64,000 bases of DNA from a virus (lineage: Duplodnaviria; Heunggongvirae; Uroviricota; Caudoviricetes), in IMG/VR virus record IMGVR_UViG_3300001242_000012; one strand, written 5' to 3'. A program made the translations under genes and the position numbers. A model generated the notes under the pieces. It worked only from the letters and a program-made list of their open reading frames with translations. It was not told the DNA's origin and made no database searches. This document shows positions 4,017 through 49,944 of this stretch, piece by piece; position 1 is the stretch's first letter; the number at the start of each line of letters is the position of its first letter.

Positions 4017-4877
4017 TTAGCCAGCGGCAGCAGCTTGCTTCTTAATGTATCTTAAGTTCAACTGATCCTTGGTATTGCGTTTTGGATCAAAGCCATTGTT
4101 CTTTACATTGAATGTAACTGCATTGACCCTTAATCCACCCATTTCCTTGTTGTTAAGCAAAACATTGCAGAAGTTGAATATCAACATTGCTGCTGTTGAG
4201 TTAGTTGCCATAGACTGAGGATGGCTAATAGCCCGCTCAGCACAGCTTAATTCTGTGGTAAACTTCGTATTGGTATCATTCATAACATCATGGAAGACAT
4301 CAGTGACACAAGGCATGTAGAATGAATGTGGTTTATTATTACCTTCCTGAAGTGTTCCCTTATGGTTTACTCCCAATACTACCTGGCCATTGTAAAGTTC
4401 GTTGCCGCTGTCAAGATATACCATATTTCTCTCACCGGAATAGAACAGATCGGCTATCAACTGCCTGGTCTTATTATTATCAACTGCACCGATAATTATC
4501 GGATAACAGTTCTTATGTAGATCCATAAGCATCTTCAATGCTGCTTTGGTCTCTACATAAGCATCATGAGCGTTGATTGGTGTTCCGAAGGCATTTGAAT
4601 AACGGGCAGCAAGCACCATAGCCTTACTTTTATTCAGGTCTGGCATAATGAAGTTTTGCCGAGTTAAGTTTTTCTCCTCAACTTTATCCGGATCAGCAAG
4701 AGTTATCATATGCTTTTGGCCTTCCTTACGGGTGTAATTCTTAATACTAATCTGTCTTACAAGATTGGGTACCAAGAATCCACCAGTGCCACCATTACCT
4801 ATGATTATGTAATGATGCGGTGCGTTATTGGTCACCGCATCAAAATCAAGTGCGTAAGTCTTTTCAAGTATAGACAT
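4017..4877 (-). CDS. E1-like ThiF/MoeB-family adenylyltransferase
   Basis: Rossmann motif IIIGNGGTGG and the E1 signature ADPDKVEEKNLTRQ, which matches D.D.VE.SNLNRQ. Confidence 0.7.
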   Translation of the reverse strand: MSILEKTYALDFDAVTNNAPHHYIIIGNGGTGGFLVPNLVRQISIKNYTRKEGQKHMITLADPDKVEEKNLTRQNFIMPDLNKSKAMVLAARYSNAFGTPINAHDAYVETKAALKMLMDLHKNCYPIIIGAVDNNKTRQLIADLFYSGERNMVYLDSGNELYNGQVVLGVNHKGTLQEGNNKPHSFYMPCVTDVFHDVMNDTNTKFTTELSCAERAISHPQSMATNSTAAMLIFNFCNVLLNNKEMGGLRVNAVTFNVKNNGFDPKRNTKDQLNLRYIKKQAAAAG

Positions 4878-4890
4878 AATTACCTCCTTA

Positions 4891-6318
4891 CTATTTTAAG
4901 TGCACATTCTTACAATCTTCGATTGTACAATCGCAACAACGATACTGTAATGTGCATGACATACAAAAGGTGTAATGTGGACAATCCGGTCCATCACAGC
5001 TTTCGACAGTTTTTGCAGCCTCAAGATTTTTCTTAGCTGCAAAATCTAAAATAGGCTGACATTCTTTAATTCTATCACATTCGCAACACTTACCGCTGCA
5101 TACTTCACACAGGCTTGCGAGCTCACAGGTGTAACAATTTTCAAGATCTTGTTGAGGCTTAAACATATTCGGATTTTCGTTGATATACTTAATGCCTTTT
5201 TCAACTGGACTCACTACATCTCTCCCAGAGAACATTGCTGTCAATATCAACTGGGAGAGAGATATATCGTCAAAGTTTTTCACAACAAAATCAATGATAT
5301 TCTTTACTCGACTCTGATTGGGCACATCCGCTCTGTGTTCGGGTCCAGACAATACATTTGTTTGCAGTCTGTGCACGTCTGCTCCGTCAGTTTTTTTTTC
5401 CGAATTTGTTTCTGCGTCTGTCCCGGCCCCGTGAAAATACCATTTTTTTTGAGGAATGGCTTCAGTAGTTGCGCCAGCACCAAAAGTAGTTACTTTACCG
5501 TTATTACCATAGGTTAGATAATCTCTTCCACCTTGCCAACCAACTACTGTGGGCTTTTTTAGCTTCGTCATCCACTCTTCCGGGAAGCTAACTTTCGGGA
5601 ATATACCCATTACCTCAGGTACCTGAAGTAAATACTTTTGGTTAGCTACATTCATAGCAATCTCAGGTTTCTCTACGATTTCCCATATGGGGATATTAAC
5701 TTGCTGACCAGCACACGCATAACGTGTGAGGTAAGTTGGGCTAGTAGTGATAGTACCAAATACCATGTAGCACTGAGCTGCATTTTCATTGGCATTGTCA
5801 GTACCAGACCAGAAAGCTCCCATAGTATGATGGCTGTGGATTTCCATTACAGGAACTTTATCAAGGCGTAAGCGATTTACTTCCGGATCTTCATGGAACT
5901 CTGAAAGTCCACCAGAGTTTTTCTGTTCAGGGATGTAAATGAAATGCTCTTTTGTGTCCTGATCCCAGAAGATTAGAGCAGACGCTTCGGTTTTGTCCTT
6001 CTCATGAACAGCTATAAAGAAGTTCAGGATCTGGCAAATCATATGAAACGGAATCTTAGGAATGGACAGATTCAAGCCTAACTTAAGTTTTTGTAAGCCG
6101 GGAACAGTCTCCGGTATCATTACAAAGTCACCCATTCCAGTGTGCCGTACCATCTTTGTACCATCCGCAGTCATGATGTAGTTAACAGCCTTGGTAAGAC
6201 CTTCTGCAGGAACATCAATAAGATAATCAGCAGCTTGTCTGATTAATGCAGCCTTACTTGCAGCCTTTTGTGCTTCTTTCTCTCTAACCTGAGCTTCCAG
6301 CTCATCTTTTAATGACAT
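4891..6318 (-). CDS. JAB/JAMM (MPN+) metallopeptidase with Cys-rich C-terminal zinc-binding region
   Basis: An upstream Glu (TKEHFIYIPEQ) followed by MEIHSHHTMGAFWSGTD, i.e. H-x-H-x7-S-xx-D. The C-terminal ~90 aa carry more than 20 Cys in CxxC-like clusters. Confidence 0.75.
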   Translation of the reverse strand: MSLKDELEAQVREKEAQKAASKAALIRQAADYLIDVPAEGLTKAVNYIMTADGTKMVRHTGMGDFVMIPETVPGLQKLKLGLNLSIPKIPFHMICQILNFFIAVHEKDKTEASALIFWDQDTKEHFIYIPEQKNSGGLSEFHEDPEVNRLRLDKVPVMEIHSHHTMGAFWSGTDNANENAAQCYMVFGTITTSPTYLTRYACAGQQVNIPIWEIVEKPEIAMNVANQKYLLQVPEVMGIFPKVSFPEEWMTKLKKPTVVGWQGGRDYLTYGNNGKVTTFGAGATTEAIPQKKWYFHGAGTDAETNSEKKTDGADVHRLQTNVLSGPEHRADVPNQSRVKNIIDFVVKNFDDISLSQLILTAMFSGRDVVSPVEKGIKYINENPNMFKPQQDLENCYTCELASLCEVCSGKCCECDRIKECQPILDFAAKKNLEAAKTVESCDGPDCPHYTFCMSCTLQYRCCDCTIEDCKNVHLK

Positions 6319-7037
6319 TATCTCAATTCTCCTTCCAAATTTTGAATTATGCTTGCTACAGACCTTAACGGTTTAAGGATTTCATACGGGAATGTAGCAA
6401 CACCATCAAGATGTTTAATTAGGCTATGAACCCTGTCAACCCTTACTGTCCTGCCATTAGGTGTTTGCACAGCCAACGGATAGAAGTTACTGTTCTCAAG
6501 GTGCGCATTAAAATTTGAGCTAAAGAATTGCTCAACGAACCCAGATATACCGGCAAGATTCCTCCATTGTTTTGCTGTGCTATGTCCACCCCAACATATA
6601 TTAGCATCGTCCTGAACATTGGTGAATGGGAAGCGACACAATGTATCTGTTGTAATGAGTATTGGACCCTTAGCAGCATATACATGGCTTAATCTTAACA
6701 TATATTCTCCATTTTGATGTTGATTAAGAATAAATATAAATACACAGCTAGGTACAAGCACATTCTTGTAAACTCCTACAGAGCCTTCATCCTGATAACT
6801 AATACGCCTTCTAGTTTCAGGTATCTGATATACTATCAAAGTGCTAGCGTTTTTCTTAATCATCCTCACAACTCCGTGAGGAGAAGGCATGATACCTGTA
6901 TCATGCCGAAAGTCATTGGCAACTGCTTGAGCAAGGCCATCCGGTGAAATTTGCCTTGTTTTAGAAATCCCATTTTCATCATGTTCAATTAATCTCACGC
7001 TATCTGCGTGAATCTCTAATACAGCCCGTGGTTTCAT
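6318..7037 (-). CDS. candidate E2-like (UBC-fold) protein
   Basis: RFPFTNVQDDANICWGG resembles the E2 HPN...ICL catalytic region. It sits between the JAB and E1 genes. Assignment is weak. Confidence 0.3.
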   Translation of the reverse strand: MKPRAVLEIHADSVRLIEHDENGISKTRQISPDGLAQAVANDFRHDTGIMPSPHGVVRMIKKNASTLIVYQIPETRRRISYQDEGSVGVYKNVLVPSCVFIFILNQHQNGEYMLRLSHVYAAKGPILITTDTLCRFPFTNVQDDANICWGGHSTAKQWRNLAGISGFVEQFFSSNFNAHLENSNFYPLAVQTPNGRTVRVDRVHSLIKHLDGVATFPYEILKPLRSVASIIQNLEGELR

Positions 7038-9067: not shown

Positions 9068-9946
9068 TTACTTAAGACAAGCTTGCTTAACAGCATTTGC
9101 CATATCTTCAAGTGTAGGAGTCAGAAACATTTTGGTTGCTTTGCCTTCATAGGCATTCTCATAATGTTTATATTCGTATTCATCAGGATTGAATATATAC
9201 AGACTCTTACTCTTTCTTCTTACTTCCTCAACAAGTCCAGGTGCTTCTTCTGAACCACGTGTATCGAGGTCAGACATGATAAATACAACAGTTTGAGGAG
9301 ACAATTTATTATGATAATCTTTTAATAGCTTTTTAAGGGCTTTGGGCAAATCAGTTCCACCGCCCCATTGTTGTCTTCTTTCGAGATTAGTCAATGTCTC
9401 TCTCCAGTCAGTCCTAATATCCTTGGTTACATATTCGAGCTTATTTGAAAATATAAATAGCTCAAACTTAGAGATCTCCTGACCGACTGCCTGACAAATT
9501 AAAGTCAATGTTTTAGCATGTCGATCCATTGAGCCTGACGTATCTAAAAGTACTAGTAGTCTAGGCTTATGAATTTTTTTAACCTTCCAGCTGATCTGAA
9601 TTGGTATACCACCAGTAGACTTTGCATTGTTTATAGTCTTACGGAAATTGATCATAGCCATTTTCTTACTTTCCTTGCGATGACGAGACATTGCTGTAAT
9701 GATCTGTCTGGCAATTTTCCGCATATTTCTACGTGCCTTAAGTACCTCGTCTTCATGTATATTAGGTCTCGTAAGATTGCCATCACTTTTTCCTGCTCCA
9801 GGTTGCCCAGGTTGTCCAGGTGGGCCTTCCGGCCCATCCTCATCACCTGGTTTACTTTGTACCTGCGACTGCTGTTGCTGGTTGGTATTTGTCATCCAGT
9901 TCCAAAAGTCTAGGTGGGCGTCTCTTACGCCCGCTCCAACAGCCAT
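9068..9946 (-). CDS. von Willebrand factor A (vWA) domain protein
   Basis: MIDAS motif LLVLLDTSGSMD (DxSxS) and an N-terminal Gly/Pro-rich collagen-like stretch. Its start overlaps the AAA+ gene. Confidence 0.75.
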   Translation of the reverse strand: MAVGAGVRDAHLDFWNWMTNTNQQQQSQVQSKPGDEDGPEGPPGQPGQPGAGKSDGNLTRPNIHEDEVLKARRNMRKIARQIITAMSRHRKESKKMAMINFRKTINNAKSTGGIPIQISWKVKKIHKPRLLVLLDTSGSMDRHAKTLTLICQAVGQEISKFELFIFSNKLEYVTKDIRTDWRETLTNLERRQQWGGGTDLPKALKKLLKDYHNKLSPQTVVFIMSDLDTRGSEEAPGLVEEVRRKSKSLYIFNPDEYEYKHYENAYEGKATKMFLTPTLEDMANAVKQACLK

Positions 9947-11145
9947 TTCGCTCCACCTCTCTCTTGCATCTTATCCAGATCTTCTCTGTTTTTAAGAAAC
10001 AGAGTTGTCAATTGATCAAGCAAGGGAGATTCAATTTTTCTTATGCCCATGTTTGTAAGGGCTGCAGCTAAGTCCAGGCTTTCTGAAACACTAGGCTGTT
10101 TGAGCAAGTTGACCTCATTACGAATAACACTCATGATTCTAGCAATCTGTAGAGCAGTGTTAGGTCGCAAAGTATCAGTTTTTTTCATCAAGATTGTTGC
10201 TTCCTTATCAATGGTCGGAAACCCGACCCAAAGGTAAACACAACGACGACGAAGTGCATCACCAAGATCTCTTACCCCATTAGACGTAAGGATAACTGGC
10301 GGAATCTTCTTAGCGATTACTGTTCCATATTCAGGTATTGATACCTGAAAGTCAGACAGTATTTCAAGAAGGTGAGCTTCGAACTCTTGGTCGACTTTAT
10401 CCACTTCATCAATAAGTAGAACCGGAGTAGGTTCTTCTCTCAATGCTTGGAGTAATGGCCTTTCAAGCAAGTAATCTTCACCAAAGATATTCCCATCGCC
10501 TTTACCACGTTGTATGTCAAGGATCTGTTTCTGATAGTTCCACTCATAAAGTGCATGAGTAGCGTCGATCCCGTCATAACATTGTAGCCGGATAAGCTTT
10601 GTGTTAAAGATTGTGGAAAGTACTTTTGCTAACTCTGTTTTACCACAGCCAGGTGGTCCTTCAACTAGTAATGGCTTACCAAGGGCAAGCGCTACGTAGA
10701 TGTTCATAGCGATATCAGCGCTGCAAACATACTTGCATCTAGTTTCCATTGTATCTTTCAGTGTGTCAGGATTTAGTTCGTTGATCATTTTTTGTAGTTC
10801 TCCTTTGCTACCAAACCTCTTTCTTAGGCCAAATACTATGTCTCTAAAGCCGTATTTAGTGTCGAGCATTATGTCATCAATAGCTTTAATACATCTTTGC
10901 TTTTTAGACAATGGTTTAAGTCCATGTTCCTTGCCGTATCCCAGGACTTCTTTCATCAACTGGTCATGTCTTATAATGAGGTTCATTGCTTCCATTGGAT
11001 CAATAGATCCAGTAGCTATTTCTTCATTCAGCTTTTCTTTAAGTTTAGCTGTAGACATATCAATCCATTCAGGAAGATCAACGCCTGCTTCTAAAGCTTG
11101 GTTCATTGATCTTCTATATGCCTTCTTAATCTCCTTGGGTTGCAT
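9925..11145 (-). CDS. MoxR-family AAA+ ATPase
   Basis: Walker A LLVEGPPGCGKTELAKVL, Walker B VLLIDEVDKV, sensor/arginine region ALRRRC. The pairing with a vWA partner is typical of MoxR. Confidence 0.8.
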   Translation of the reverse strand: MQPKEIKKAYRRSMNQALEAGVDLPEWIDMSTAKLKEKLNEEIATGSIDPMEAMNLIIRHDQLMKEVLGYGKEHGLKPLSKKQRCIKAIDDIMLDTKYGFRDIVFGLRKRFGSKGELQKMINELNPDTLKDTMETRCKYVCSADIAMNIYVALALGKPLLVEGPPGCGKTELAKVLSTIFNTKLIRLQCYDGIDATHALYEWNYQKQILDIQRGKGDGNIFGEDYLLERPLLQALREEPTPVLLIDEVDKVDQEFEAHLLEILSDFQVSIPEYGTVIAKKIPPVILTSNGVRDLGDALRRRCVYLWVGFPTIDKEATILMKKTDTLRPNTALQIARIMSVIRNEVNLLKQPSVSESLDLAAALTNMGIRKIESPLLDQLTTLFLKNREDLDKMQERGGAKWLLERA

Positions 11146-12752: not shown

Positions 12753-13535
12753 CTAGTATATTTCATTGTACTCTTCATCTCCTATATCAAGATGGCTATT
12801 TCTTTCCTTGTCTAGTAGGTATTCAAGGAGTGAGATGCCACTCTTAAAACCATTTATAGGGATATTGAAGAATCTCATTAACTCAAATACTTCATATAGT
12901 ATACCAGTATTTTCAGCATTTTGTAACTGATTAGTAAGAGTAATCTGGTTTAATTTTTTATTAACCATAGCTTCTTTAATTGCTTTTACTGTACTATTAC
13001 AAGGTTTCAAGTTACAGGTTACTATGAATCTACAAGCCCTTAACACTATGTTGGTTGTTGGATTTTTTTCCTCCCTTAATCTTAGAATTCTTGTTTCAAG
13101 ATCAAGCCATGTTTGAGGGCAGGCTATTAATCTTCCATCAGGGAATAAAGCCACCTCATTAATTGTAAAGTCAAATCTAGGTGGGTATGGCAGTAATGTA
13201 TTACATGGTACCCAATCAATAGGTATTTCAATCCCGTGGAATAAAAGGTATTGTATCGTTTTATTCCTAACCTGCTCATAACGGATTTGATTATTTCTTA
13301 TTATATAACTATCTAGAAGTGATCGTTCATAATAACAAATATCAATATCACGAGGGTTACCATCAAGAATTAAGTCTCTGATGTAACCACCGACTATTGA
13401 GTATGGATCTCCGTTTGGCAATGAGTACAGATTAAGAAGATTTATAACAATTCTAAGTTCATTTGGGATAGTAAAGCTTACATCACGTATGGATACCATT
13501 ATGGTACACCTCCAAGAGTTCACGTCTAGTATCAC
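12753..13535 (-). CDS. nucleotidyltransferase, CCA-adding/poly(A)-polymerase head-domain-like
   Basis: GGYIRDLILDGNPRDIDICY matches the polbeta-NTase head motif GGxVRDxLLGxxPxDxD of tRNA nucleotidyltransferases. Confidence 0.55.
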   Translation of the reverse strand: MILDVNSWRCTIMVSIRDVSFTIPNELRIVINLLNLYSLPNGDPYSIVGGYIRDLILDGNPRDIDICYYERSLLDSYIIRNNQIRYEQVRNKTIQYLLFHGIEIPIDWVPCNTLLPYPPRFDFTINEVALFPDGRLIACPQTWLDLETRILRLREEKNPTTNIVLRACRFIVTCNLKPCNSTVKAIKEAMVNKKLNQITLTNQLQNAENTGILYEVFELMRFFNIPINGFKSGISLLEYLLDKERNSHLDIGDEEYNEIY

Positions 13536-21980: not shown

Positions 21981-22559
21981 TTATAGTCCCCTCCTTCTTT
22001 TCCAGGTATAAAAACCTTTTACTGAAATACCTGCAACTATAACGCTGATTATTGCCATAGGAATTTCGTCTCTTATTAATGAAAGGATAACAACTACTAT
22101 GCTTGCTATTCCAAGGTATATCCAGCATTCTACCTTCTTCTCAGCCATAACATATTGAGAAAGTATTCCATACGCTATTGCTAGAGCATATCCCGTCACA
22201 TAAGGCATATTGGTATACAGCAAAAGAAGTATGTATGCTATGGTAAATAACACTATACCAGCTATTGTATGGATACCAGTTTCTTTATCAGTTTCATGTG
22301 AGATTTGTAGTATACTTCCATCAAGCATAAGATGTGACCATCTCCACCATCCATAAATACTAATTATTAAAAGTGGTACTTGCATATATAAATCAGGATA
22401 ATCTTTAAGGTAGTAAGATCCTACGGCAGTAGCTATCATACTAACTATTGCTACTGGCCAACAGCGCTTATCCTCATCTATTGCCATAAACATTGATGTG
22501 AAGTTTAGGATTAGTCCTATAATGATCATTATTATTGCCATATCATTCTCCTCCCCCAA
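21981..22559 (-). CDS. multi-pass membrane protein
   Basis: 192 aa with about 5 hydrophobic helices. Confidence 0.45.
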   Translation of the reverse strand: MGEENDMAIIMIIIGLILNFTSMFMAIDEDKRCWPVAIVSMIATAVGSYYLKDYPDLYMQVPLLIISIYGWWRWSHLMLDGSILQISHETDKETGIHTIAGIVLFTIAYILLLLYTNMPYVTGYALAIAYGILSQYVMAEKKVECWIYLGIASIVVVILSLIRDEIPMAIISVIVAGISVKGFYTWKRRRGL

Positions 22560-27465: not shown

Positions 27466-28689
27466 CTAGCTTGATTTAAAGTTATATATGGGCTTAATGA
27501 TGTTAACTATTTCTATAGTATCACCTGTGTTCTCGATGATCTCCTCTATGGGCTTATAAGCCATAGGAGCTTCATCTATGGTAGATTCAGTAACTGATGA
27601 AGTATAGATGCCTTTCATGGTTAGGACATAATCATTCATATCAATGTTCTTTTTAGCTTGGGACCTACTCATTAGACGTCCTGCACCATGAGGAGCTGAG
27701 AAATTCCAATCAGGGTTTCCCTTACCTATAGCAATGATGCTGCCATCACGCATGTTAATGGGAATGATTAATTTTTCTCCTAACTGAGCAGATACAGCAC
27801 CTTTGCGAAGTATCATATGCTCCAGGTCAATGTAATTATGTATTGTTTGAAAGGAATCCAGCTCACGGTATCTTAATCCTAAGCATTCCTCCACTATTCT
27901 TCTAGCCATGGTCATTCTATTTAAACTAGCATATTGCTGTATAATGGCCACATCATGAAGATATTCTTGCATTAAGGTGCCTTCTAGATAACACAGATCC
28001 TTAGGTATACTACAGGCTTTCTTGCACTCTTGCTGAAGAACCTTCAGAGCTTTTTGTATTTTATGTTCCTTACCAACTGCTTTGTATCCTTTGATTAGAG
28101 CAATCTTCATAGCTTCATAATCATCGTTGAATCCACTATGGTATCCGTAAGCACTGCCCTGGTAGTATTCTGCTACTTGCTTACCAAGGTTCCTACTTCC
28201 ACTATGTATGACTAAATATTTATTATCTTGGCTATCCACATTAATCTCGATGAAGTGATTCCCACCACCAAGGCTACCCAGAGCTTTATTAAAATCTTTG
28301 GCGATCTTACTGATACCTCTAATACAAAGTAATTTATTAATTTGATCTTTGAAATCACACTTTGATAAGACATTGATGTTATAACCGCTTGGAATGTTAT
28401 TAGTGATATAATCATCGAAATTCTTTAGATCAATATCTATATTACCTAACTCAACAACAAGCATGCCGCAGGATATGTCCACACCAACTAAGTTAGGAAC
28501 GATCTTATTCTTTATTGTCATTGTAGTTCCTATGGTACATCCAGCACCTTTATGACAATCCGGCATAATCTTAATTGAACTACCAATCGTAAATTCCTGA
28601 TTACATAATTCAATTATTTGAGATATAGTTTGCGCGTCAACATTGTCTGTAAACACTTCTGCAGTATTATGCTTACCTTTGATAATCAT
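27466..28689 (-). CDS. rtcB: RNA 3'-phosphate/2',3'-cyclic phosphate-5'-OH ligase RtcB
   Basis: MPDCHKGAGC, GGGNHFIE and SAPHGAGR (the histidine-GMP site), at the 407-aa family length. Confidence 0.9.
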   Translation of the reverse strand: MIIKGKHNTAEVFTDNVDAQTISQIIELCNQEFTIGSSIKIMPDCHKGAGCTIGTTMTIKNKIVPNLVGVDISCGMLVVELGNIDIDLKNFDDYITNNIPSGYNINVLSKCDFKDQINKLLCIRGISKIAKDFNKALGSLGGGNHFIEINVDSQDNKYLVIHSGSRNLGKQVAEYYQGSAYGYHSGFNDDYEAMKIALIKGYKAVGKEHKIQKALKVLQQECKKACSIPKDLCYLEGTLMQEYLHDVAIIQQYASLNRMTMARRIVEECLGLRYRELDSFQTIHNYIDLEHMILRKGAVSAQLGEKLIIPINMRDGSIIAIGKGNPDWNFSAPHGAGRLMSRSQAKKNIDMNDYVLTMKGIYTSSVTESTIDEAPMAYKPIEEIIENTGDTIEIVNIIKPIYNFKSS

Positions 28690-30279: not shown

Positions 30280-30307
30280 ATTATACTTCTTCCTTTATAT
30301 TTGTTTT

Positions 30308-31056
30308 ATGGTGGACGTAGGGGGAGTTGAACCCCCGTCCGGAACTGTTACCCTAAACCGTCTACCTAGAATAGACCATCGTGGTCAACGGCAGCACTAA
30401 GTAGCTTGCTCACTTTCATCACTGGGTAGGAGTCGAACCTACAAACTGTAATAACAGCCACGCTTCAGCGTGTAACCTCTGGGTGGACACCCGTAAGCTC
30501 ACTTAGTTACATATAGAGCCGACGTGTCGCTTTGCCAATTTGCCACCAGTGATATTTATTAACCTCCACCACTTGCATTTAGGATGCAAGAAACTATTTG
30601 CCATAGAGTAGGGATTTTAACCCTACATGGACTGAATTTCGGCCACCTACCACCATATTATCATTAGCGACTCCTTAATGGGTTAGGGTTGCACTAATGT
30701 ATGCGAGGCCAGTTTCTAATACTCTACCAGGTTGTCTTCAGAGAACGACCCATAGTTCTCCTACGTACCTTACTAGTCAGTCCTAAACCGGAAAGAGCGA
30801 TTGCTTTCGCCTTCTATGACCTATTGCCTATCTGTAGCCCTTCCGAACTACTGTTTCCGATAGGACTCTCCCATTCTTTGACCCTCATCCGATTGCTGGG
30901 ATAAGCTCGGTGTTTTGGGGCTGATCTCCCAGCTCTAAAGTTAATTAGAGACTAGGCAGCTTGAAGAGTAGTTTTGGCATTTAAAGCCTTGTGGTTATAT
31001 GGTAACCAACCTCTAGGCAAGTTTTACTCTCACGCTCCGTCGAAACCCGGTACGCC
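30308..31056 (-). ncRNA. ssrA: tmRNA-like (SsrA-like) gene, unusually long (~750 nt)
   Basis: Minus-strand 5' end GGGCGUA-CC-GGGUUUCGACGG matches the tmRNA TLD signature (compare B. subtilis GGGGACGUUACGGAUUCGACAGGG). The 3' end CGGACGGGGGUUCAACUCCCCC-UACGUCC-ACCA gives a T-arm plus an acceptor strand complementary to the 5' GGGCGUA with one G-U, then an encoded CCA. An in-frame tag-like ORF sits about 70 nt from the 5' end: GCC AAA ACU ACU CUU CAA GCU GCC UAG = AKTTLQAA*, close to B. subtilis ...GGCAAAACUAAC...GCUGCCUAA. Confidence 0.5.
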
Positions 31057-31160
31057 CATGAATGGAGCGGTATTGGACTTATTTGTCATCTGCCATCCGC
31101 TCCTGAATTAAATGTATATAAGTAAATTAGTGCTGGATTGGCCCTCACAGCTGGGCAAAG

Positions 31161-31412
31161 TTATCCATAGTTCATTAATAAGGTTTTCATCGGAACTGCA
31201 CTTACATATGGTATAGTTTGATATTCTTTAAACTTCACATCAGGATTTCTCGGTATGAATATATCGCACCTATAATTGATATCGAATAGTTTAAAATCAA
31301 ATTGTGGAAATTCACTTCCTACGAGTCCTATCACTATGATTGCTTCATCATGAATATAAACATTGCATGCATATTTAGTTACAGAACAAAAACCTACTAT
31401 TATGACAATCAC
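31161..31412 (-). CDS. hypothetical protein (GTG start)
   Basis: AAGGAGGTG ribosome-binding site 8 nt upstream of the GTG. Confidence 0.4.
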   Translation of the reverse strand: MIVIIVGFCSVTKYACNVYIHDEAIIVIGLVGSEFPQFDFKLFDINYRCDIFIPRNPDVKFKEYQTIPYVSAVPMKTLLMNYG

Positions 31413-31435
31413 CTCCTTAGATTTAATCAGGGCGG

Positions 31436-31475
31436 GCCGTGGTAGGAATCGAACCTACTTTGACTAGTCCACTAG
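31436..31475 (-). other. tRNA-like T-arm element (GUAGG-UUCGAUU-CCUAC), not foldable into a canonical tRNA
   Basis: Perfect T-loop consensus on the minus strand in an intergenic gap. No complementary 5' acceptor strand found within 100 nt. Confidence 0.3.
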
Positions 31476-31487
31476 CTAGCCCGTAAT

Positions 31488-33143: not shown

Positions 33144-33701
33144 TTAACTAGCGAATCTTAACCTCAGAACCTCCTTCCTTAAGATATTATAATAATGATG
33201 AATCTTTGGATTTGTATGTTTTCTCCATTCAGATTCATTATTATCAATTAACATCTTCCTTAAATCTGTAGCAGAAGCATGTACTCCAGGTGGTCTAGGC
33301 ACAATCAACTGATGAGTATAAGGAATTGTATTTTGGTTAAACCATTCGCCTCTGCGTTCATCATTACCTGATATAAACATACCAGGAGTATCACCCAGGA
33401 AGCATTTAGCTGCAGTTAGCAAGTAGTTACCCCATGCTTCTGAAATGTCATCTTCAGTTGTTAGATCAGCTAACGGCATTATCATCAGCTTACCGGATCT
33501 AACTTCATTACTGAAGATCGTCTGGATTAGTTCAATCCTTAGATTTATGGGGAATGGATTTCTTTCATTAGGTATAATACCGGCAGATCCCACAATAACT
33601 AAAAACTTATCGCATAAAGTGAGACCAGGACGTACCAGTGACTCATGCAGGAGGTGAAAGTGTTGGAATCTACCGATACAGAAACCAGTTGATACCATGC
33701 T
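33144..33701 (-). CDS. nadM: nicotinamide-nucleotide adenylyltransferase, NadM-type (HxGH nucleotidyltransferase)
   Basis: GRFQHFHLLHE matches the archaeal/bacterial NadM G.FQPFH.GH motif. The start lies 1 nt after the nadV stop and has a GGAGGT RBS. Confidence 0.55.
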   Translation of the reverse strand, partial: SMVSTGFCIGRFQHFHLLHESLVRPGLTLCDKFLVIVGSAGIIPNERNPFPINLRIELIQTIFSNEVRSGKLMIMPLADLTTEDDISEAWGNYLLTAAKCFLGDTPGMFISGNDERRGEWFNQNTIPYTHQLIVPRPPGVHASATDLRKMLIDNNESEWRKHTNPKIHHYYNILRKEVLRLRFAS

Positions 33702-35124
33702 ACATACCTCCATATCTTGCAATGAAGTTGTTGATGAGACCTTTAATTTCATCAGAAAGAATAATACTCTCCTGAGCTCCAGTCTGCATTCTACCAAGTG
33801 CCATTGTATCATTCCAATCGAATGTTTTTATGTGAGGCACATGCATACTCGGATTCCATTCATATACAGTTTGATACAACTCGCACCCCTTATATTTGTG
33901 CAAGCTTCCTCGTGGAATTACAATCAGGTTTGTATTATCCTTACTGTGATCAAAAGTAATGTCAACTAATCCAGGAATTGATTGTTTAATTTCATCCATA
34001 CTAAGTTTCATTCTGTCTGCACCATTACTATAGGCTGTTTTCATAGCCCAGCCATTAGTATCACGCTCAAGATGCTTATAATATCCTGATCCATGTCCAT
34101 AGAAGACAAAGTCTAATGGAACACCAGCTTCAACGAGTTGAATATCTCTGATTCTGGCTATCCTCAATGACATTGATTCTCCAATGATTGTTGAACAATT
34201 GCCAGTTCCAATTTCTTGTACTGACTTATATATTTCTATGGCTTGTTCAACAACAAGTCCTGAATCAGGGCGAAGTACTACGTGCACACCAGCATTCTTT
34301 GCACGGTGAAGCAGATAGTACATATTTCTGCTGATAAATTTGTTAGCATCCCATGTGTCAATTGGCATTGCTACGATGCCCCAACCTTTAGCTGCTGCAA
34401 CATCAATTGCACGTATACAACAGTCCATTTCAACATCAAACTGCTGTGTTACCTTATGGGCTAGTGCTGGAATACTACCTATAACTGCACTAGAACCAGC
34501 ATGCTCTGCAGCCAAGAAATCATCGGTCCCATGCAGGAATAATGGCCAAGCAATTGCAGCCCAATATGCAGCTTCTTCTGAATTATGACCTCTGTAGCCG
34601 AAGCTGTGGAATCTCCACTTATACTTCTCCCAGTCAAATCCATGTTCTTTACAAGTCTGGAGTAAGTATTGCCTCATATAAAAGGCTTCTGTAGCTAGTG
34701 CCGTGGGCCACCAGCCCTTCATTAGTCTACCTTCCCACCAGGTAACGAGCTCACCAAAACCTTTAACGGTGTTCTGTATCTGAGCAAATGGAGTACCTTT
34801 TGGACACCAGATACCTTCCGGCAACATTTCAACCTTAAGTGGTATACGGCCATCAAGCTCATTGACCACTCGTCTGAATAATGCTTCAGGAAACTCAAGA
34901 TTCATAAACTTGGCCCGATTAATAGCTCTGTCAATATGTTCGTGTGTTAATATCACATTCAAACATCGTTTAGCTATCTCACTAAGACCAAATAAGATCT
35001 GGCCTGCCGCCCTATTGTACATGTGGCTCCCCTCAAAGCCAACATCAATCTTGAAACTCCCATGTCCAAGATTATAGGTATCGGTATGAAATAATGGATT
35101 TTGACCTAGTGTCTCTAAACTCAT
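33700..35124 (-). CDS. nadV: nicotinamide phosphoribosyltransferase (NadV/NAMPT)
   Basis: N-terminal NPLFHTDTYNLGHG (TDSYK.SH-type), at the ~475-aa family length. Confidence 0.7.
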   Translation of the reverse strand: MSLETLGQNPLFHTDTYNLGHGSFKIDVGFEGSHMYNRAAGQILFGLSEIAKRCLNVILTHEHIDRAINRAKFMNLEFPEALFRRVVNELDGRIPLKVEMLPEGIWCPKGTPFAQIQNTVKGFGELVTWWEGRLMKGWWPTALATEAFYMRQYLLQTCKEHGFDWEKYKWRFHSFGYRGHNSEEAAYWAAIAWPLFLHGTDDFLAAEHAGSSAVIGSIPALAHKVTQQFDVEMDCCIRAIDVAAAKGWGIVAMPIDTWDANKFISRNMYYLLHRAKNAGVHVVLRPDSGLVVEQAIEIYKSVQEIGTGNCSTIIGESMSLRIARIRDIQLVEAGVPLDFVFYGHGSGYYKHLERDTNGWAMKTAYSNGADRMKLSMDEIKQSIPGLVDITFDHSKDNTNLIVIPRGSLHKYKGCELYQTVYEWNPSMHVPHIKTFDWNDTMALGRMQTGAQESIILSDEIKGLINNFIARYGGM

Positions 35125-41052: not shown

Positions 41053-41104
41053 ATAACCACTCCTTGATAAAGTCATGGAGGCGCCTTGGACCACTTGGCT
41101 ATAG

Positions 41105-41140
41105 CATGATCAGTGCTACTGGGATTCGAACCCAGGCTCT
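41105..41140 (-). other. tRNA-like T-arm element (CUGGG-UUCGAAU-CCCAG), non-canonical
   Basis: Perfect T-loop consensus in an 80-nt intergenic gap. No acceptor pairing found. Confidence 0.3.
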
Positions 41141-41175
41141 CCTCCTCTGGCGGGGCTAAGCTGGCCCCAAGCTCA

Positions 41176-41751
41176 TTATACAGCAGTTTTACTGATTAGT
41201 AAATTATATCTACTGATAGCTGAATTCAATGCAGGAGCTATGATGTTAGCCATCTTCATTACAATATTCAATCTGGTATTTTGTAAAACAAGGTATTCCA
41301 TATAGCCAGCTACATTTACTATTCCAATAATATGAATGCATCCTACGGGAGGTAATTTCTTATTTACACCAGATCCAGGGTGTATAGGGCCATCTTCTAT
41401 GCGTACATGTCCTATATTCTCTGATTTGCCAAGACAAGCATCAATAGCAATTATGAATGCACCTGGGTGATTAGCATTAATTATCTCAATTGTTTCTTCT
41501 AAATCACTTGCACCAACTGGCTTATCTAATGTTCCATACAAGTGGAACTCATTATCCATTGAGCTCAGTATATGTCCAGTTAACGGTCCTAAGCTGTCAC
41601 CTGTGGAACGGTCAGTTCCTATGCAAATGACAACTATGGATTGAAATAGATATACTTTATACTTAAATAAGTAGTCAAATATAAAGTTTGAGAAGACTCT
41701 TGAGCCAGTTTGTAGATCTAAAGTATTATCTTCCAAACTAACATATTGCAT
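41176..41751 (-). CDS. YyaC-family (GPR/HybD-like) putative sporulation-associated protease
   Basis: ICIGTDRSTGDSLGPLTG matches the YyaC/DUF1256 signature GTDRSTGDxLGPLxG. Confidence 0.55.
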   Translation of the reverse strand: MQYVSLEDNTLDLQTGSRVFSNFIFDYLFKYKVYLFQSIVVICIGTDRSTGDSLGPLTGHILSSMDNEFHLYGTLDKPVGASDLEETIEIINANHPGAFIIAIDACLGKSENIGHVRIEDGPIHPGSGVNKKLPPVGCIHIIGIVNVAGYMEYLVLQNTRLNIVMKMANIIAPALNSAISRYNLLISKTAV

Positions 41752-42684: not shown

Positions 42685-43227
42685 TTATGAAAGAACTTTT
42701 ACCATATAAGCATATACAGCTGCAATAGATTTGAGGCAGCTGATCTCACCACTATCTATCTTACCCAATACATCGGGAATTGGAATCCCGACTACTTCTA
42801 TGTTCTCATTCTCTGTGGGCTCTGGATTGCCTTCAGTGAGATCGGTTGCAAGTAGTATATGTATATTCTCAGTTAAGAATCCTGGTGAACTTAAACCAGA
42901 AAGTAGAGTCTCAATGCTACCAGCAGTATATCCAGTTTCCTCCTTGAATTCCCTTAGACCAGCCATATATTTAGATTCGCCTGGATCTATCTTACCAGCT
43001 GGAAGTTCTAGAAGTATTCTTCCTACAGCATGCCTATACTGCCTGATAAAGATCATATTGTTACTCTTGTCGATACCTAATATAGCTACAGCATTACAAG
43101 ATTCAACGACCTCTCTTATTGTAGGCTTACAATCATCCACTTGCACTTTATCAACTCTTACGGCCATCCTTTTTCCTCGGAATACAGTTTCACCATGTAT
43201 TAACTTTTCAATCTTAGCTGGCATCAT
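42685..43227 (-). CDS. NUDIX hydrolase (ADP-ribose pyrophosphatase-like)
   Basis: Nudix box LPAGKIDPGESKYMAGLREFKEETGY (Gx5Ex7REUxEExGU). Confidence 0.75.
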   Translation of the reverse strand: MMPAKIEKLIHGETVFRGKRMAVRVDKVQVDDCKPTIREVVESCNAVAILGIDKSNNMIFIRQYRHAVGRILLELPAGKIDPGESKYMAGLREFKEETGYTAGSIETLLSGLSSPGFLTENIHILLATDLTEGNPEPTENENIEVVGIPIPDVLGKIDSGEISCLKSIAAVYAYMVKVLS

Positions 43228-49170: not shown

Positions 49171-49372
49171 TACTATTCCTCATGTGTAATCTCATTTTAT
49201 AACATCCACAATCTGCGCTAACGTTCACACAATTAGCGCAGCATTTATACTCATACATATCAGATGCATGGCCACTATACTTTATTGTAGTCGTACCAAG
49301 TAACGTTTTCATACATGGTAGACGACACATACCATTTTTAAAGTAGACACACCTACTAGTTATGTCATACAT
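49163..49372 (-). CDS. small Cys-rich protein (same family)
   Basis: MYDITSRCVYFKNGMCRLPC...KCCANCVNVSADCGC. Confidence 0.45.
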   Translation of the reverse strand: MYDITSRCVYFKNGMCRLPCMKTLLGTTTIKYSGHASDMYEYKCCANCVNVSADCGCYKMRLHMRNSNV

Positions 49373-49944
49373 TATAGCTTTATGAATCCAGATAACTGAA
49401 CAATGAACACATCACTGAGTGTACACGAGCCATCAGTCATCGTAACCTTAATGATATCTCCTACAGACATGGATCTTCCCCTATAGTCATCAGGACGATA
49501 TACATTAAATTTAGTGAATAAGTGTTCTGCCAGTTCCTCAGTCGGGTAATTATCAGGATTAGGCGTGAATTCACCCTTATCCGTATACACTAATTGATAA
49601 TCACTAAACATCATAGGCTGTTGGTAGATGCTTGCAATGTACTCTATATTACATCCAACGACAACAACATTGTCTAAGGACACATAATCTGAATATCCAT
49701 TGTATATATTGCTCTCAGCAGTTACACAGTGGATAGTGTCATCCAGAACACGGGCCATAGCCTTTACTTTCTCGCCCTTTCTGAATACTACCACGAATCT
49801 ACCACAGTTATCGGCATACTCATCCTTAATGAATGTAATAGTAACTGGGATTTCCTTACCTACACAACTATCATGTTTGCATGCAGGACAATTTCCGCAA
49901 CCATTGAATTTGCCTATTTTAAGCATGATGGACCTCCTATTCAT
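49372..49944 (-). CDS. hypothetical protein
   Basis: 190 aa; N-terminal CGNCPACKHDSC. Confidence 0.45.
   Translation of the reverse strand: MNRRSIMLKIGKFNGCGNCPACKHDSCVGKEIPVTITFIKDEYADNCGRFVVVFRKGEKVKAMARVLDDTIHCVTAESNIYNGYSDYVSLDNVVVVGCNIEYIASIYQQPMMFSDYQLVYTDKGEFTPNPDNYPTEELAEHLFTKFNVYRPDDYRGRSMSVGDIIKVTMTDGSCTLSDVFIVQLSGFIKL

Follow-up and report, generated by a model that had tools for sequence, protein, structure and literature searches.

A probable transfer-messenger RNA gene of 749 nucleotides with an expanded, structured middle in a huge phage

The DNA analysed here (hereinafter the window, 64,000 nucleotides (nt) of the Caudoviricetes record IMGVR_UViG_3300001242_000012) carries on its minus strand, at 30309..31057, a 749-nt sequence that is very likely a genuine transfer-messenger RNA (tmRNA) gene with the standard order of parts, encoded in a huge phage. 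It is the largest form of tmRNA without an intron that we found documented, and a new variant with respect to both size and structure. The locus probably works as an expanded tmRNA in one piece, and its length is best accounted for, again with reasonable confidence, by growth of the region that normally holds pseudoknots (PK) 2 to 4, which here spans about 550 nt and consists of domains that fold independently, including a tRNA-like one. The extent of the gene, from the mature 5' G to the encoded CCA, follows from the sequence itself, a series of deletion constructs analysed with ARAGORN, the Rfam tmRNA model RF00023 and three assemblies; RNA position i corresponds to window position 31058 - i. 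The first-pass annotation of this DNA had placed a tmRNA-like gene of about twice the normal size at 30308-31056. Both the gene and its size are borne out, and the ends shift by one base: the first G is at 31057, the CCA ends at 30309, and base 30308 is one past the end.

Read from 31057 to 30309, the minus strand starts with GGGCGUA-CC-GGGUUUCGACGG and ends with GGAC-GGGGG-UUCAACU-CCCCC-UACGUCC-A-CCA; the tmRNA-type ends, the acceptor pairing with a single G-U and the encoded CCA that had been noticed at first pass can all be read directly in the sequence. The 5' half of the tRNA-like domain (31039..31057, minus strand) consists of the acceptor strand GGGCGUA (RNA 1-7), CC and the D-loop analogue GGGUUUCGAC (RNA 10-19), which agrees with the RF00023 consensus GGGGguGAucuGGaUUCGAC. 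The 3' half (30309..30340, minus strand), assigned through the RF00023 alignment, consists of GGAC, the T arm GGGGG-UUCAACU-CCCCC (pair probability 0.94), the acceptor strand UACGUCC, A73 and CCA, and the alignment of GGACGGGGGUUCAACUCCCCC shows posterior '*' throughout. In helix P1 (RNA 1-7/739-745), positions 31057-31051 pair with 30319-30313 as G-C, G-C, G.U, C-G, G-C, U-A and A-U, with a mean probability of 0.91 in the unconstrained partition function of the 749-nt RNA. The sole wobble of this 7-bp acceptor stem is G3.U70, the alanine identity element of tRNA-Ala and tmRNA. The gene combines the acceptor stem, G3.U70, A73 and CCA of a standard-form tmRNA with its 7-nt T loop, GGAC and D-loop analogue. 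By our estimate, the chance that a 10-base GGNUUCGACGG-type motif together with a 7-nt acceptor complement occurs no more than 1.2 kb upstream of a tmRNA 3' end is far below 1e-6. A hairpin read from the sequence (GGAGCGG...CCGCUCC; 31064..31103, minus strand) ends 6 nt before the mature 5' end and is presumed to be a precursor leader removed by RNase P. Promoter and terminator scans were uninformative, with no convincing sigma-70 promoter found.

The tag reading frame GCC AAA ACU ACU CUU CAA GCU GCC UAG (30952..30978, minus strand; RNA 80-106), recognised by ARAGORN and in the sequence, encodes (A)AKTTLQAA*. The tag AKTTLQAA* is the one predicted at first pass, and the UUUAAAU context reported to precede it is indeed present; the frame begins about 80 nt into the RNA, not about 70. 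Within the single-stranded CAAGGCUUUAAAU (RNA 67-79), the UUUAAAU motif immediately before the resume codon GCC puts a U at -5 and an A at -4; in Escherichia coli tmRNA, the frame is known to be set by these positions. The resume codon is a GCN triplet at the usual distance from the 5' end (about 80-100 nt), and the C terminus is hydrophobic and ends in AA, with LQAA an atypical ending. The rest of the anatomy, namely helix P2, PK1 and the domain boundaries, is deduced from this single sequence unless stated otherwise. P2 would be formed by RNA 20-46 (31012..31038, minus strand) and RNA 688-717 (30341..30370, minus strand), for which RNAduplex predicts 22 pairs at -18.3 kcal/mol, an energy reached by 23 of 300 shuffles. 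The 3' strand is assigned provisionally because GGUUUAGGGU within it has alternative partners at RNA 369-378 and 473-481. A candidate PK1 (30992..31011, minus strand; RNA 47-66), with S1 at 47-49/55-57 and S2 at 50-54/62-66, was found by inspection; 13 nt separate its end from the resume codon. A helix 5-like stacked hairpin (30920..30960, minus strand; RNA 98-138) with pair probabilities of 0.95-0.98 encloses the stop codon together with the final codons of the tag, and the segment RNA 47-138 as a whole folds with z = -2.7. Taken together, nt 1-138 and the last 62 nt (688-749) look like an ordinary Bacillota-type tmRNA.

These features bear on the possibility that the locus encodes a tmRNA-shaped RNA that does not perform trans-translation, being either a decoy that titrates SmpB, alanyl-tRNA synthetase (AlaRS) or EF-Tu and so blocks host rescue, or a scaffold with a stabilising tRNA-like end. 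Phage forms reduced to the tRNA-like domain (TLD-only forms) exist and represent a comparable mode (PMC11915505), one molecule related to these inhibits the host tmRNA (PMC4131195), and many mini TLD-only genes are present in viral and metagenome contigs. The unusual tag end is compatible with such a role, and a second tRNA-like element embedded in the RNA (see below) could bind further factors. However, a pure decoy would not need an intact tag frame in the canonical position, with U-5, A-4 and a stop codon in helix 5, and we regard this explanation as improbable.

The excess over a typical tmRNA, about 390 nt, lies in the middle of the gene: about 550 nt separate helix 5 from the 3' strand of P2, where about 170-200 nt are common and a PK2-PK4 ring takes up about 150-200 nt. 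In place of a PK2-PK4 ring of normal size, this interval holds multi-helix domains and the tRNA-like element. The PK2-like region (30870..30933, minus strand; RNA 125-188) has two alternative folds, a 7-bp stem 125-131/157-163 combined with 148-151/166-169 (an H-type arrangement, by inspection only) or a nested hairpin at 139-188; hairpin probabilities here are about 0.94. It is followed by extra domain A (30779..30867, minus strand; RNA 191-279), in which a 14-bp closing stem surrounds three hairpins, one of them with a GGAA tetraloop. Pair probabilities in domain A are 0.86-0.98, and it folds with z = -4.2, better than all of 200 shuffles. Extra region B/C (30560..30777, minus strand; RNA 281-498) contains hairpins at 297-318, 359-396, 432-450 and 469-485, each with an individual probability of 0.8-0.94, and a long-range closing stem that varies between folds. 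Weak matches to wcaG in this region (22 bits, E=0.08) and to DUF805b were judged to be due to chance. A long-range helix 25-66/403-472 in a constrained minimum free energy fold was dropped, being no better than shuffles (18/100). Long-range pairings by which the hairpins would be organised vary from fold to fold, and we propose no global fold.

The tRNA-like element embedded in this middle part (30417..30554, minus strand; RNA 504-641) is 138 nt long and is separated from the 3' strand of P2 by a 46-nt linker. Its 9-bp acceptor-like stem UAUCACUGG/CCAGUGAUG (closing stem probability 0.97) stacks directly on the T arm GUAGG-UUCGACU-CCUAC (30442-30426; probability 0.98) and forms an acceptor-plus-T-arm minihelix that lacks an anticodon arm, G3.U70 and CCA. 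ARAGORN reports the element only at -ps90, as a tRNA with a forced 55-nt intron, and not at default settings; there is no RF00005 match at E up to 10. Two internal T-arm-like hairpins had been left unexplained at first pass. The one at 30442-30426 has a canonical T loop and is accounted for by this element, whereas the one at 30625-30609 (loop UUAAAAU, in the RNA 432-450 region) is not canonical and is best treated as an ordinary hairpin.

Several observations concern the interval as a whole. No minus-strand open reading frame (ORF) of at least 40 aa lies inside it. The G+C content is 42-50% over 30300-31100, against 26-40% in the flanks and about 35% in the genome, and this elevation across the whole 750 nt argues that the full length is under selection as RNA. 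The whole gene folds with z = -3.0, and none of 20 shuffles folds as well. The same 750 nt with the surrounding 2.5 kb are identical in the scaffold from the European Nucleotide Archive (ENA) and in two Logan assemblies of separate runs, which rules out a chimeric assembly and also means that there is no natural variation to exploit. Some of these observations count against a decaying or chimeric tmRNA, that is, a captured host ssrA disrupted by unrelated DNA, or a 3' end that is merely an attP-type fragment. In favour of this reading, the gene is a singleton without relatives, and BLAST with the 3' end retrieved nothing except tmRNA 3' fragments of the kind frequently present in phage attP sites. 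Yet both halves are intact and mutually complementary, including G3.U70; in this AT-rich genome, the inserted part is raised in G+C just as the canonical parts are, and its fold is better than that of shuffles; no target-site duplications flank it; and an attP relic accompanied by a matching 5' half would hardly be expected in a virulent-looking phage that has nearly all its genes on one strand. Altogether, decay appears highly improbable.

Two checks proposed in the first-pass annotation, ARAGORN and the tmRNA models of Rfam, are both silent on the native gene: ARAGORN at default settings calls no tmRNA in the native sequence or the window, and Rfam at the gathering score finds nothing in the window. 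Both nevertheless recognise parts of the gene once the middle is shortened or skipped. In E-value mode, RF00023 aligns to the 3' tRNA-like half only, skipping the body (29.6 bits, E=8e-10), and falls below the gathering score because the model cannot span the middle. ARAGORN was applied to 615 internal-deletion constructs, in which 110-410 nt remained at the 5' end and 60-410 nt at the 3' end. Up to a length of 420 nt, every construct (323 of 323), with any placement of the deletion, is called as a tmRNA with the tag AKTTLQAA*, and none of those of 430 nt or more is called with the native 5' end, so that the silence on the native gene reflects a length limit of the program. An alternative 5' end at RNA 290 (GUACGUA), seen only with ARAGORN at -ps80, was rejected; it lacks G3.U70 and the D-loop motif and implies an implausible tag. 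The outcome that had been named in advance as contradicting the prediction, resolution of the interval into separate tRNA genes or another RNA family, does not emerge from the covariance search, where the only significant Rfam match in the interval is tmRNA RF00023. Surveys of phage translation genes that rely on ARAGORN and Rfam, such as the huge-phage survey, would miss genes of this kind, and phage tmRNAs, with 79 phage entries in the reference tmRNA database, may be under-counted.

An insertion, an intron or extra pseudoknot domains had been offered at first pass as sources of the additional length. Among these, an intron in the T loop is excluded by the intact loop UUCAACU, which also sets this gene apart from the intron-form tmRNAs, and no known intron family matches. 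Searches of the inner 621 nt and of a 1.4-kb region with RF00028, RF00029 and relatives, and with ribozyme, RNase P and tRNA families, gave no Rfam match to a group I or group II intron or to any of the other families at E up to 10; in the same search mode, the group I intron in rtcB of Bacillus phage CM1, used as a positive control, was detected at 26.7 and 20.6 bits. The CM1 rtcB gene (LC785692.1 101647-104247; L224 in our set) is split by about 830 nt that include an ORF and yield sub-threshold RF00028 matches, and the record annotates two separate ligase coding sequences. No target-site duplications flanking the excess were found. When group I elements P7, P3 and P8 were sought by eye, GGACUGA (275-281) could be paired with UCAGUCC (423-429), and no consistent core could be built.

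Nevertheless, the 749-nt form might be only a precursor from which an internal segment is removed, either as an intron located outside the T loop or through excision of the tRNA-like element by tRNA-processing enzymes, with RNase P cutting on the 5' side of the element and RNase Z or another nuclease on the 3' side. The halves would then be re-joined, with RtcB as the candidate ligase, or would remain a two-piece tmRNA held together by P1 and P2. Group I introns of tmRNAs have mean sizes of 293-414 bp (PMC11915505), which is near the excess of about 390 nt seen here. In the tmRNA database of 97,179 sequences, a 500-bp cut-off excluded every non-intron form and all 883 intron-form tmRNAs carry a group I intron in the T loop, and its authors caution that any introns located elsewhere than in the T loop may have systematically escaped notice (PMC11915505), a caveat that leaves room for an overlooked intron here. 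The embedded element presents the acceptor-plus-T-arm stack that is recognised by RNase P (helix probability 0.97), permuted tmRNA precursors are cut by tRNA-processing enzymes into two base-paired pieces (PMC11915505), an rtcB gene lies 1.6 kb away, and other orphan tRNA-like elements occupy intergenic gaps on the same strand. Against a precursor speak the search for group I and group II introns, which yields no match at E up to 10 yet detects the positive control, and the failure to identify any splice-site logic or restored helix. Moreover, the 5'-phosphate and 3'-hydroxyl ends left by RNase P and RNase Z are not joined by RtcB, the proximity of which may be coincidental given that it is common in phages as a tRNA-repair enzyme, and the G+C elevation and predicted structure are spread across the excess instead of being confined to one block. 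On balance, a precursor role seems unlikely, though it deserves attention; if the RNA is processed, it would be the first tmRNA with an intervening sequence located elsewhere than in the T loop. A broader proposal is more doubtful still: that the gene represents a new class of tmRNA maturation in which a precursor of the standard order loses the tRNA-like element or a wider segment, through tRNA-processing enzymes or unrecognised self-splicing, so that a non-permuted gene gives rise to a two-piece tmRNA or to an RNA that has been re-ligated, tRNA-like elements being a general RNA-processing punctuation in this phage.

If, as we favour, the gene acts as a one-piece tmRNA, transcription would yield an RNA that begins with the short hairpin leader, and RNase P would trim this RNA at G1. 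The sequence determinants G3.U70 and A73 suggest that the host AlaRS would charge the encoded CCA end with alanine. Together with SmpB, the tRNA-like domain would enter the empty A site of a stalled ribosome, and translation would resume on GCC at nt 80, add (A)AKTTLQAA and end at the UAG in helix 5. The extra domains would be located where the pseudoknot ring loops outside the 30S head, and could be tolerated there or might recruit something else. In E. coli tmRNA, PK2-PK4 can be replaced or can carry inserted tags with function retained. Should the phage RNA be active in one piece, trans-translation would tolerate a tRNA-like module within a pseudoknot ring expanded to about three times its normal size.

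A number of points weigh against this reading. The tag ends in LQAA, where ALAA or LAA is usual, and is followed by a single stop codon. P2 is only marginally better than shuffled sequences, with two alternative partners for its 3' strand, and, as no homologue was found, covariation supports none of the base pairs beyond the tRNA-like domain. The RF00023 score of 29.6 bits is below the gathering score of 47, and no standard-form tmRNA of the 749-nt size is on record (tmRNA database, PMC11915505). The ribosome would have to accommodate about 390 extra nt. Finally, no smpB was found among the ORFs of at least 150 aa in the window, which covers 64 of the 244 kb, or among the shorter ORFs within about 4 kb of the gene.

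The search for relatives points to an isolated lineage. Comparison by blastn of the whole gene, the 24-kb flank, the 5' 140 nt and the 3' 113 nt with GenBank phages retrieved only generic matches to the 3' tRNA-like domain or to attP sites, and no nucleotide relative of the phage is present in that set. In IMG/VR, the exact T arm recovers only a host gammaproteobacterial tmRNA, and GGGTTTCGACGGNGNG gives 120 chance matches in GC-rich coding sequence. A dual pattern of two T loops with GGAC and CCACCA, which matches the phage RNA by construction, found no homologue in IMG/VR, JGI metagenomes or GTDB genomes, three collections from which the phage itself is absent. What it matches are pairs of a tRNA and a mini-tmRNA, tandem tRNAs, ordinary tmRNAs and one permuted beta-type tmRNA. 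The latter is a two-piece tmRNA (RF04321, 95 bits) at 855-1197 of a 1.4-kb metagenome contig (L175), which also contains an acceptor-plus-T-arm minihelix ending in ACCA about 90 nt upstream. Gene neighbourhoods are no more informative: relatives of the SPFH protein encoded upstream (48-59% identity) are on short contigs without the RNA, and the nearest relatives of the phage RtcB are bacterial Clostridia genes in chromosomal contexts. In protein searches, identity drops from 100%, for the phage itself, to 59% for SPFH and 68% for the bacterial RtcB, which indicates that the lineage is isolated in current data. In a contig with a 57%-identical SPFH homologue (L004), the SPFH gene is followed downstream by 1.15 kb of GC-rich non-coding DNA (5549-6702) in which TAGGCGGGAGTACACA occurs three times and which has neither an Rfam match nor similarity to the tmRNA.

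The embedded tRNA-like element, by contrast with the gene as a whole, has look-alikes. Its 20-mer TAGGTTCGACTCCTACCCAG is found in 17 IMG/VR contigs, in 16 of them within a conserved 77-nt tRNA-like element (L133-L149; e.g., L136 2971-3050, minus strand) of viral contigs of 29-83 kb. Where upstream sequence is present, the 77-nt element follows a tRNA-Pro(UGG) or a degenerate copy of it, and the element is itself followed by a hairpin. It lacks an anticodon loop, G3.U70 and CCA, and is not called by ARAGORN or Rfam. It contains GGAUAAGAC and GGAC motifs reminiscent of the tRNA-like domain of tmRNA. The 77-nt and the embedded elements share the T arm and 3' stem, that is, the 20-mer, which is identical because it served as the search pattern; they further share the complementary 5' strand AUCAC(C)UGGU, AAUUGG in a D-like region and a 4-bp tetraloop hairpin before the T arm, and neither has an anticodon loop. 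The 77-nt element stands on its own where a small tRNA operon ends, whereas the embedded one is inside the tmRNA and about 60 nt longer. The resemblance beyond the search pattern is suggestive of common origin and falls short of proven homology.

Two further elements of this kind are present in the window itself. Directly after the GC-rich hairpin of the SPFH gene, an intergenic orphan tRNA-like element (31423-31482, minus strand) has the form CGGGC-[CUAG UGGA CUAG]-[GUAGG UUCGAUU CCUAC]-GCCCG, with the layout of tetraloop hairpin and T arm seen in the embedded element; neither ARAGORN nor Rfam calls it. The other, an intergenic RNA at 41060-41170 (minus strand; no Rfam match), folds like a tRNA cloverleaf with a canonical T arm (CUGGG UUCGAAU CCCAG) and a D arm (GCC AAGUGGUCCAA GGC), whereas its 'acceptor' stem ends in a closing loop (UAGCA-CUGAUCA-UGCUA) and the strands in the position of the anticodon stem (GGAGG...CCUCC) lead to the flanking transcript. 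Judging by this predicted fold, it is a permuted or Y-RNA-like tRNA mimic. Taken with the related orphan elements here and in other phages, the embedded element suggests that phage transcripts contain an uncharacterised class of tRNA mimics without anticodons. Many viral and metagenome contigs (including L152, L154, L156, L163-L168, L170, L172, L186, L191 and L196) carry mini tmRNA-like genes of about 80-110 nt, consisting of the tRNA-like domain without a tag frame, right after tRNA genes; the two tested, L186 and L196, match RF00023 at 67-72 bits with the body skipped and resemble the TLD-only form of the DS6A type.

The window belongs to a metagenomic scaffold of 244 kb (ENA ERZ28564079, ANAN16-1_SAMN03203002 scaffold_26), and the sibling assemblies derive from runs of PRJNA268031, a project labelled groundwater metagenome. 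Runs SRR1658469-72 of this project hold DNA data from the Rifle aquifer. The phage is virulent-looking, nearly all ORFs of the window are on the minus strand, and the auxiliary genes named in it are typical of a large phage. The RtcB RNA ligase (27466-28689, minus strand) is encoded 1.6 kb downstream of the tmRNA gene. A tRNA-nucleotidyltransferase-like protein of the CCA-adding type is encoded at 12753-13535 (minus strand; PHROG 2244, E=1.6e-9; Pfam PolyA_pol just under the cut-off), and the two together make up an RNA end-repair kit. ARAGORN found no tRNA genes in the 64-kb window. The presence of this nucleotidyltransferase, and of RtcB so close to the tmRNA gene, fits a phage that maintains tRNA-like RNAs. 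Other products include an SNF2 helicase, NAMPT, an NMNAT-like protein, two DnaJ proteins and the SPFH protein, the gene of which lies upstream of the tmRNA gene. Between these two genes lies an 83-aa ORF (31161-31412, minus strand) that has a strong Shine-Dalgarno sequence (AAGGAGGUGA) and no family match; it is among the gene calls of the Logan assemblies and is missing from the ENA annotation.

In addition, a ubiquitin-like conjugation set (ThiF (E1-like), a Prok-JAB protein and Prok-E2_D; 4017-7037, minus strand) adjoins genes for a VWA/CoxE protein and a MoxR-like AAA ATPase (9068-11145). Genes for NAD salvage and ADP-ribose metabolism at 21981-22559, 33144-35124 and 42685-43227 (minus strand) encode an NMN transporter, an NMNAT-like cytidylyltransferase, NAMPT and NUDIX, with a Macro domain also seen in the annotation of L002; this cluster possibly counters NAD-depleting host defences. 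Proteins of the DUF1256 (YyaC, germination-protease-like) and YodL-like families are encoded at 41176-41751 and 49372-49944 (minus strand). Both families are typical of spore-forming Bacillota. Given these proteins and the phage RtcB, which is nearest to Clostridia (66-68% identity), the host is probably an endospore-forming member of the Bacillota.

Compared with the known forms of tmRNA, the phage gene occupies a position of its own. It resembles the permuted two-piece tmRNAs (RF04321, RF01849-51) in that an intervening segment and tRNA-like processing sites would be present in the precursor, and one known permuted tmRNA has a tRNA gene in its intervening sequence (PMC11915505). Unlike those, the phage gene has the 5' acceptor strand first and the CCA last, and RF04321 matches it only at chance level (22 bits, E=0.044, running into the downstream protein gene, and 12.7 bits). 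The intron-form tmRNAs, whose T-psi-C loop is interrupted by a group I intron, were reportedly described by Williams in 2002. In these forms the gene is similarly long (545-1116 bp), with an excess of a few hundred nt, and they are mostly found in Bacillota (PMC11915505), the probable host phylum here; in contrast, the T loop of the phage gene is uninterrupted, there is no group I signal, and the excess is in the pseudoknot region. The tmRNA of Bacillus phage G (308 nt, tag AKLNITNNELQVA) is likewise encoded by a large phage and, as in many Bacilli, its tag starts with AK. The known phage tmRNAs (phage G, cluster C mycobacteriophages and the TLD-only form of DS6A) are normal-sized or shorter, none being reported with an expanded middle. 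The closest correspondence is to the standard tmRNA (RF00023; SsrA), with which the phage gene has in common the order of parts, a tRNA-like domain that includes G3.U70, A73 and CCA, GGNUUCGAC as the D-loop analogue, GGAC preceding the T arm, the predicted P2 and PK1, a GCN resume codon at about 80-90 nt, a short tag with AA at its end and a stop codon in helix 5. This conserved frame is in sharp contrast to the remainder of the molecule: standard tmRNAs measure about 300-420 nt, whereas the phage gene reaches 749 nt, with a PK2-PK4 region of about 550 nt made of multi-helix domains and a tRNA-like element.

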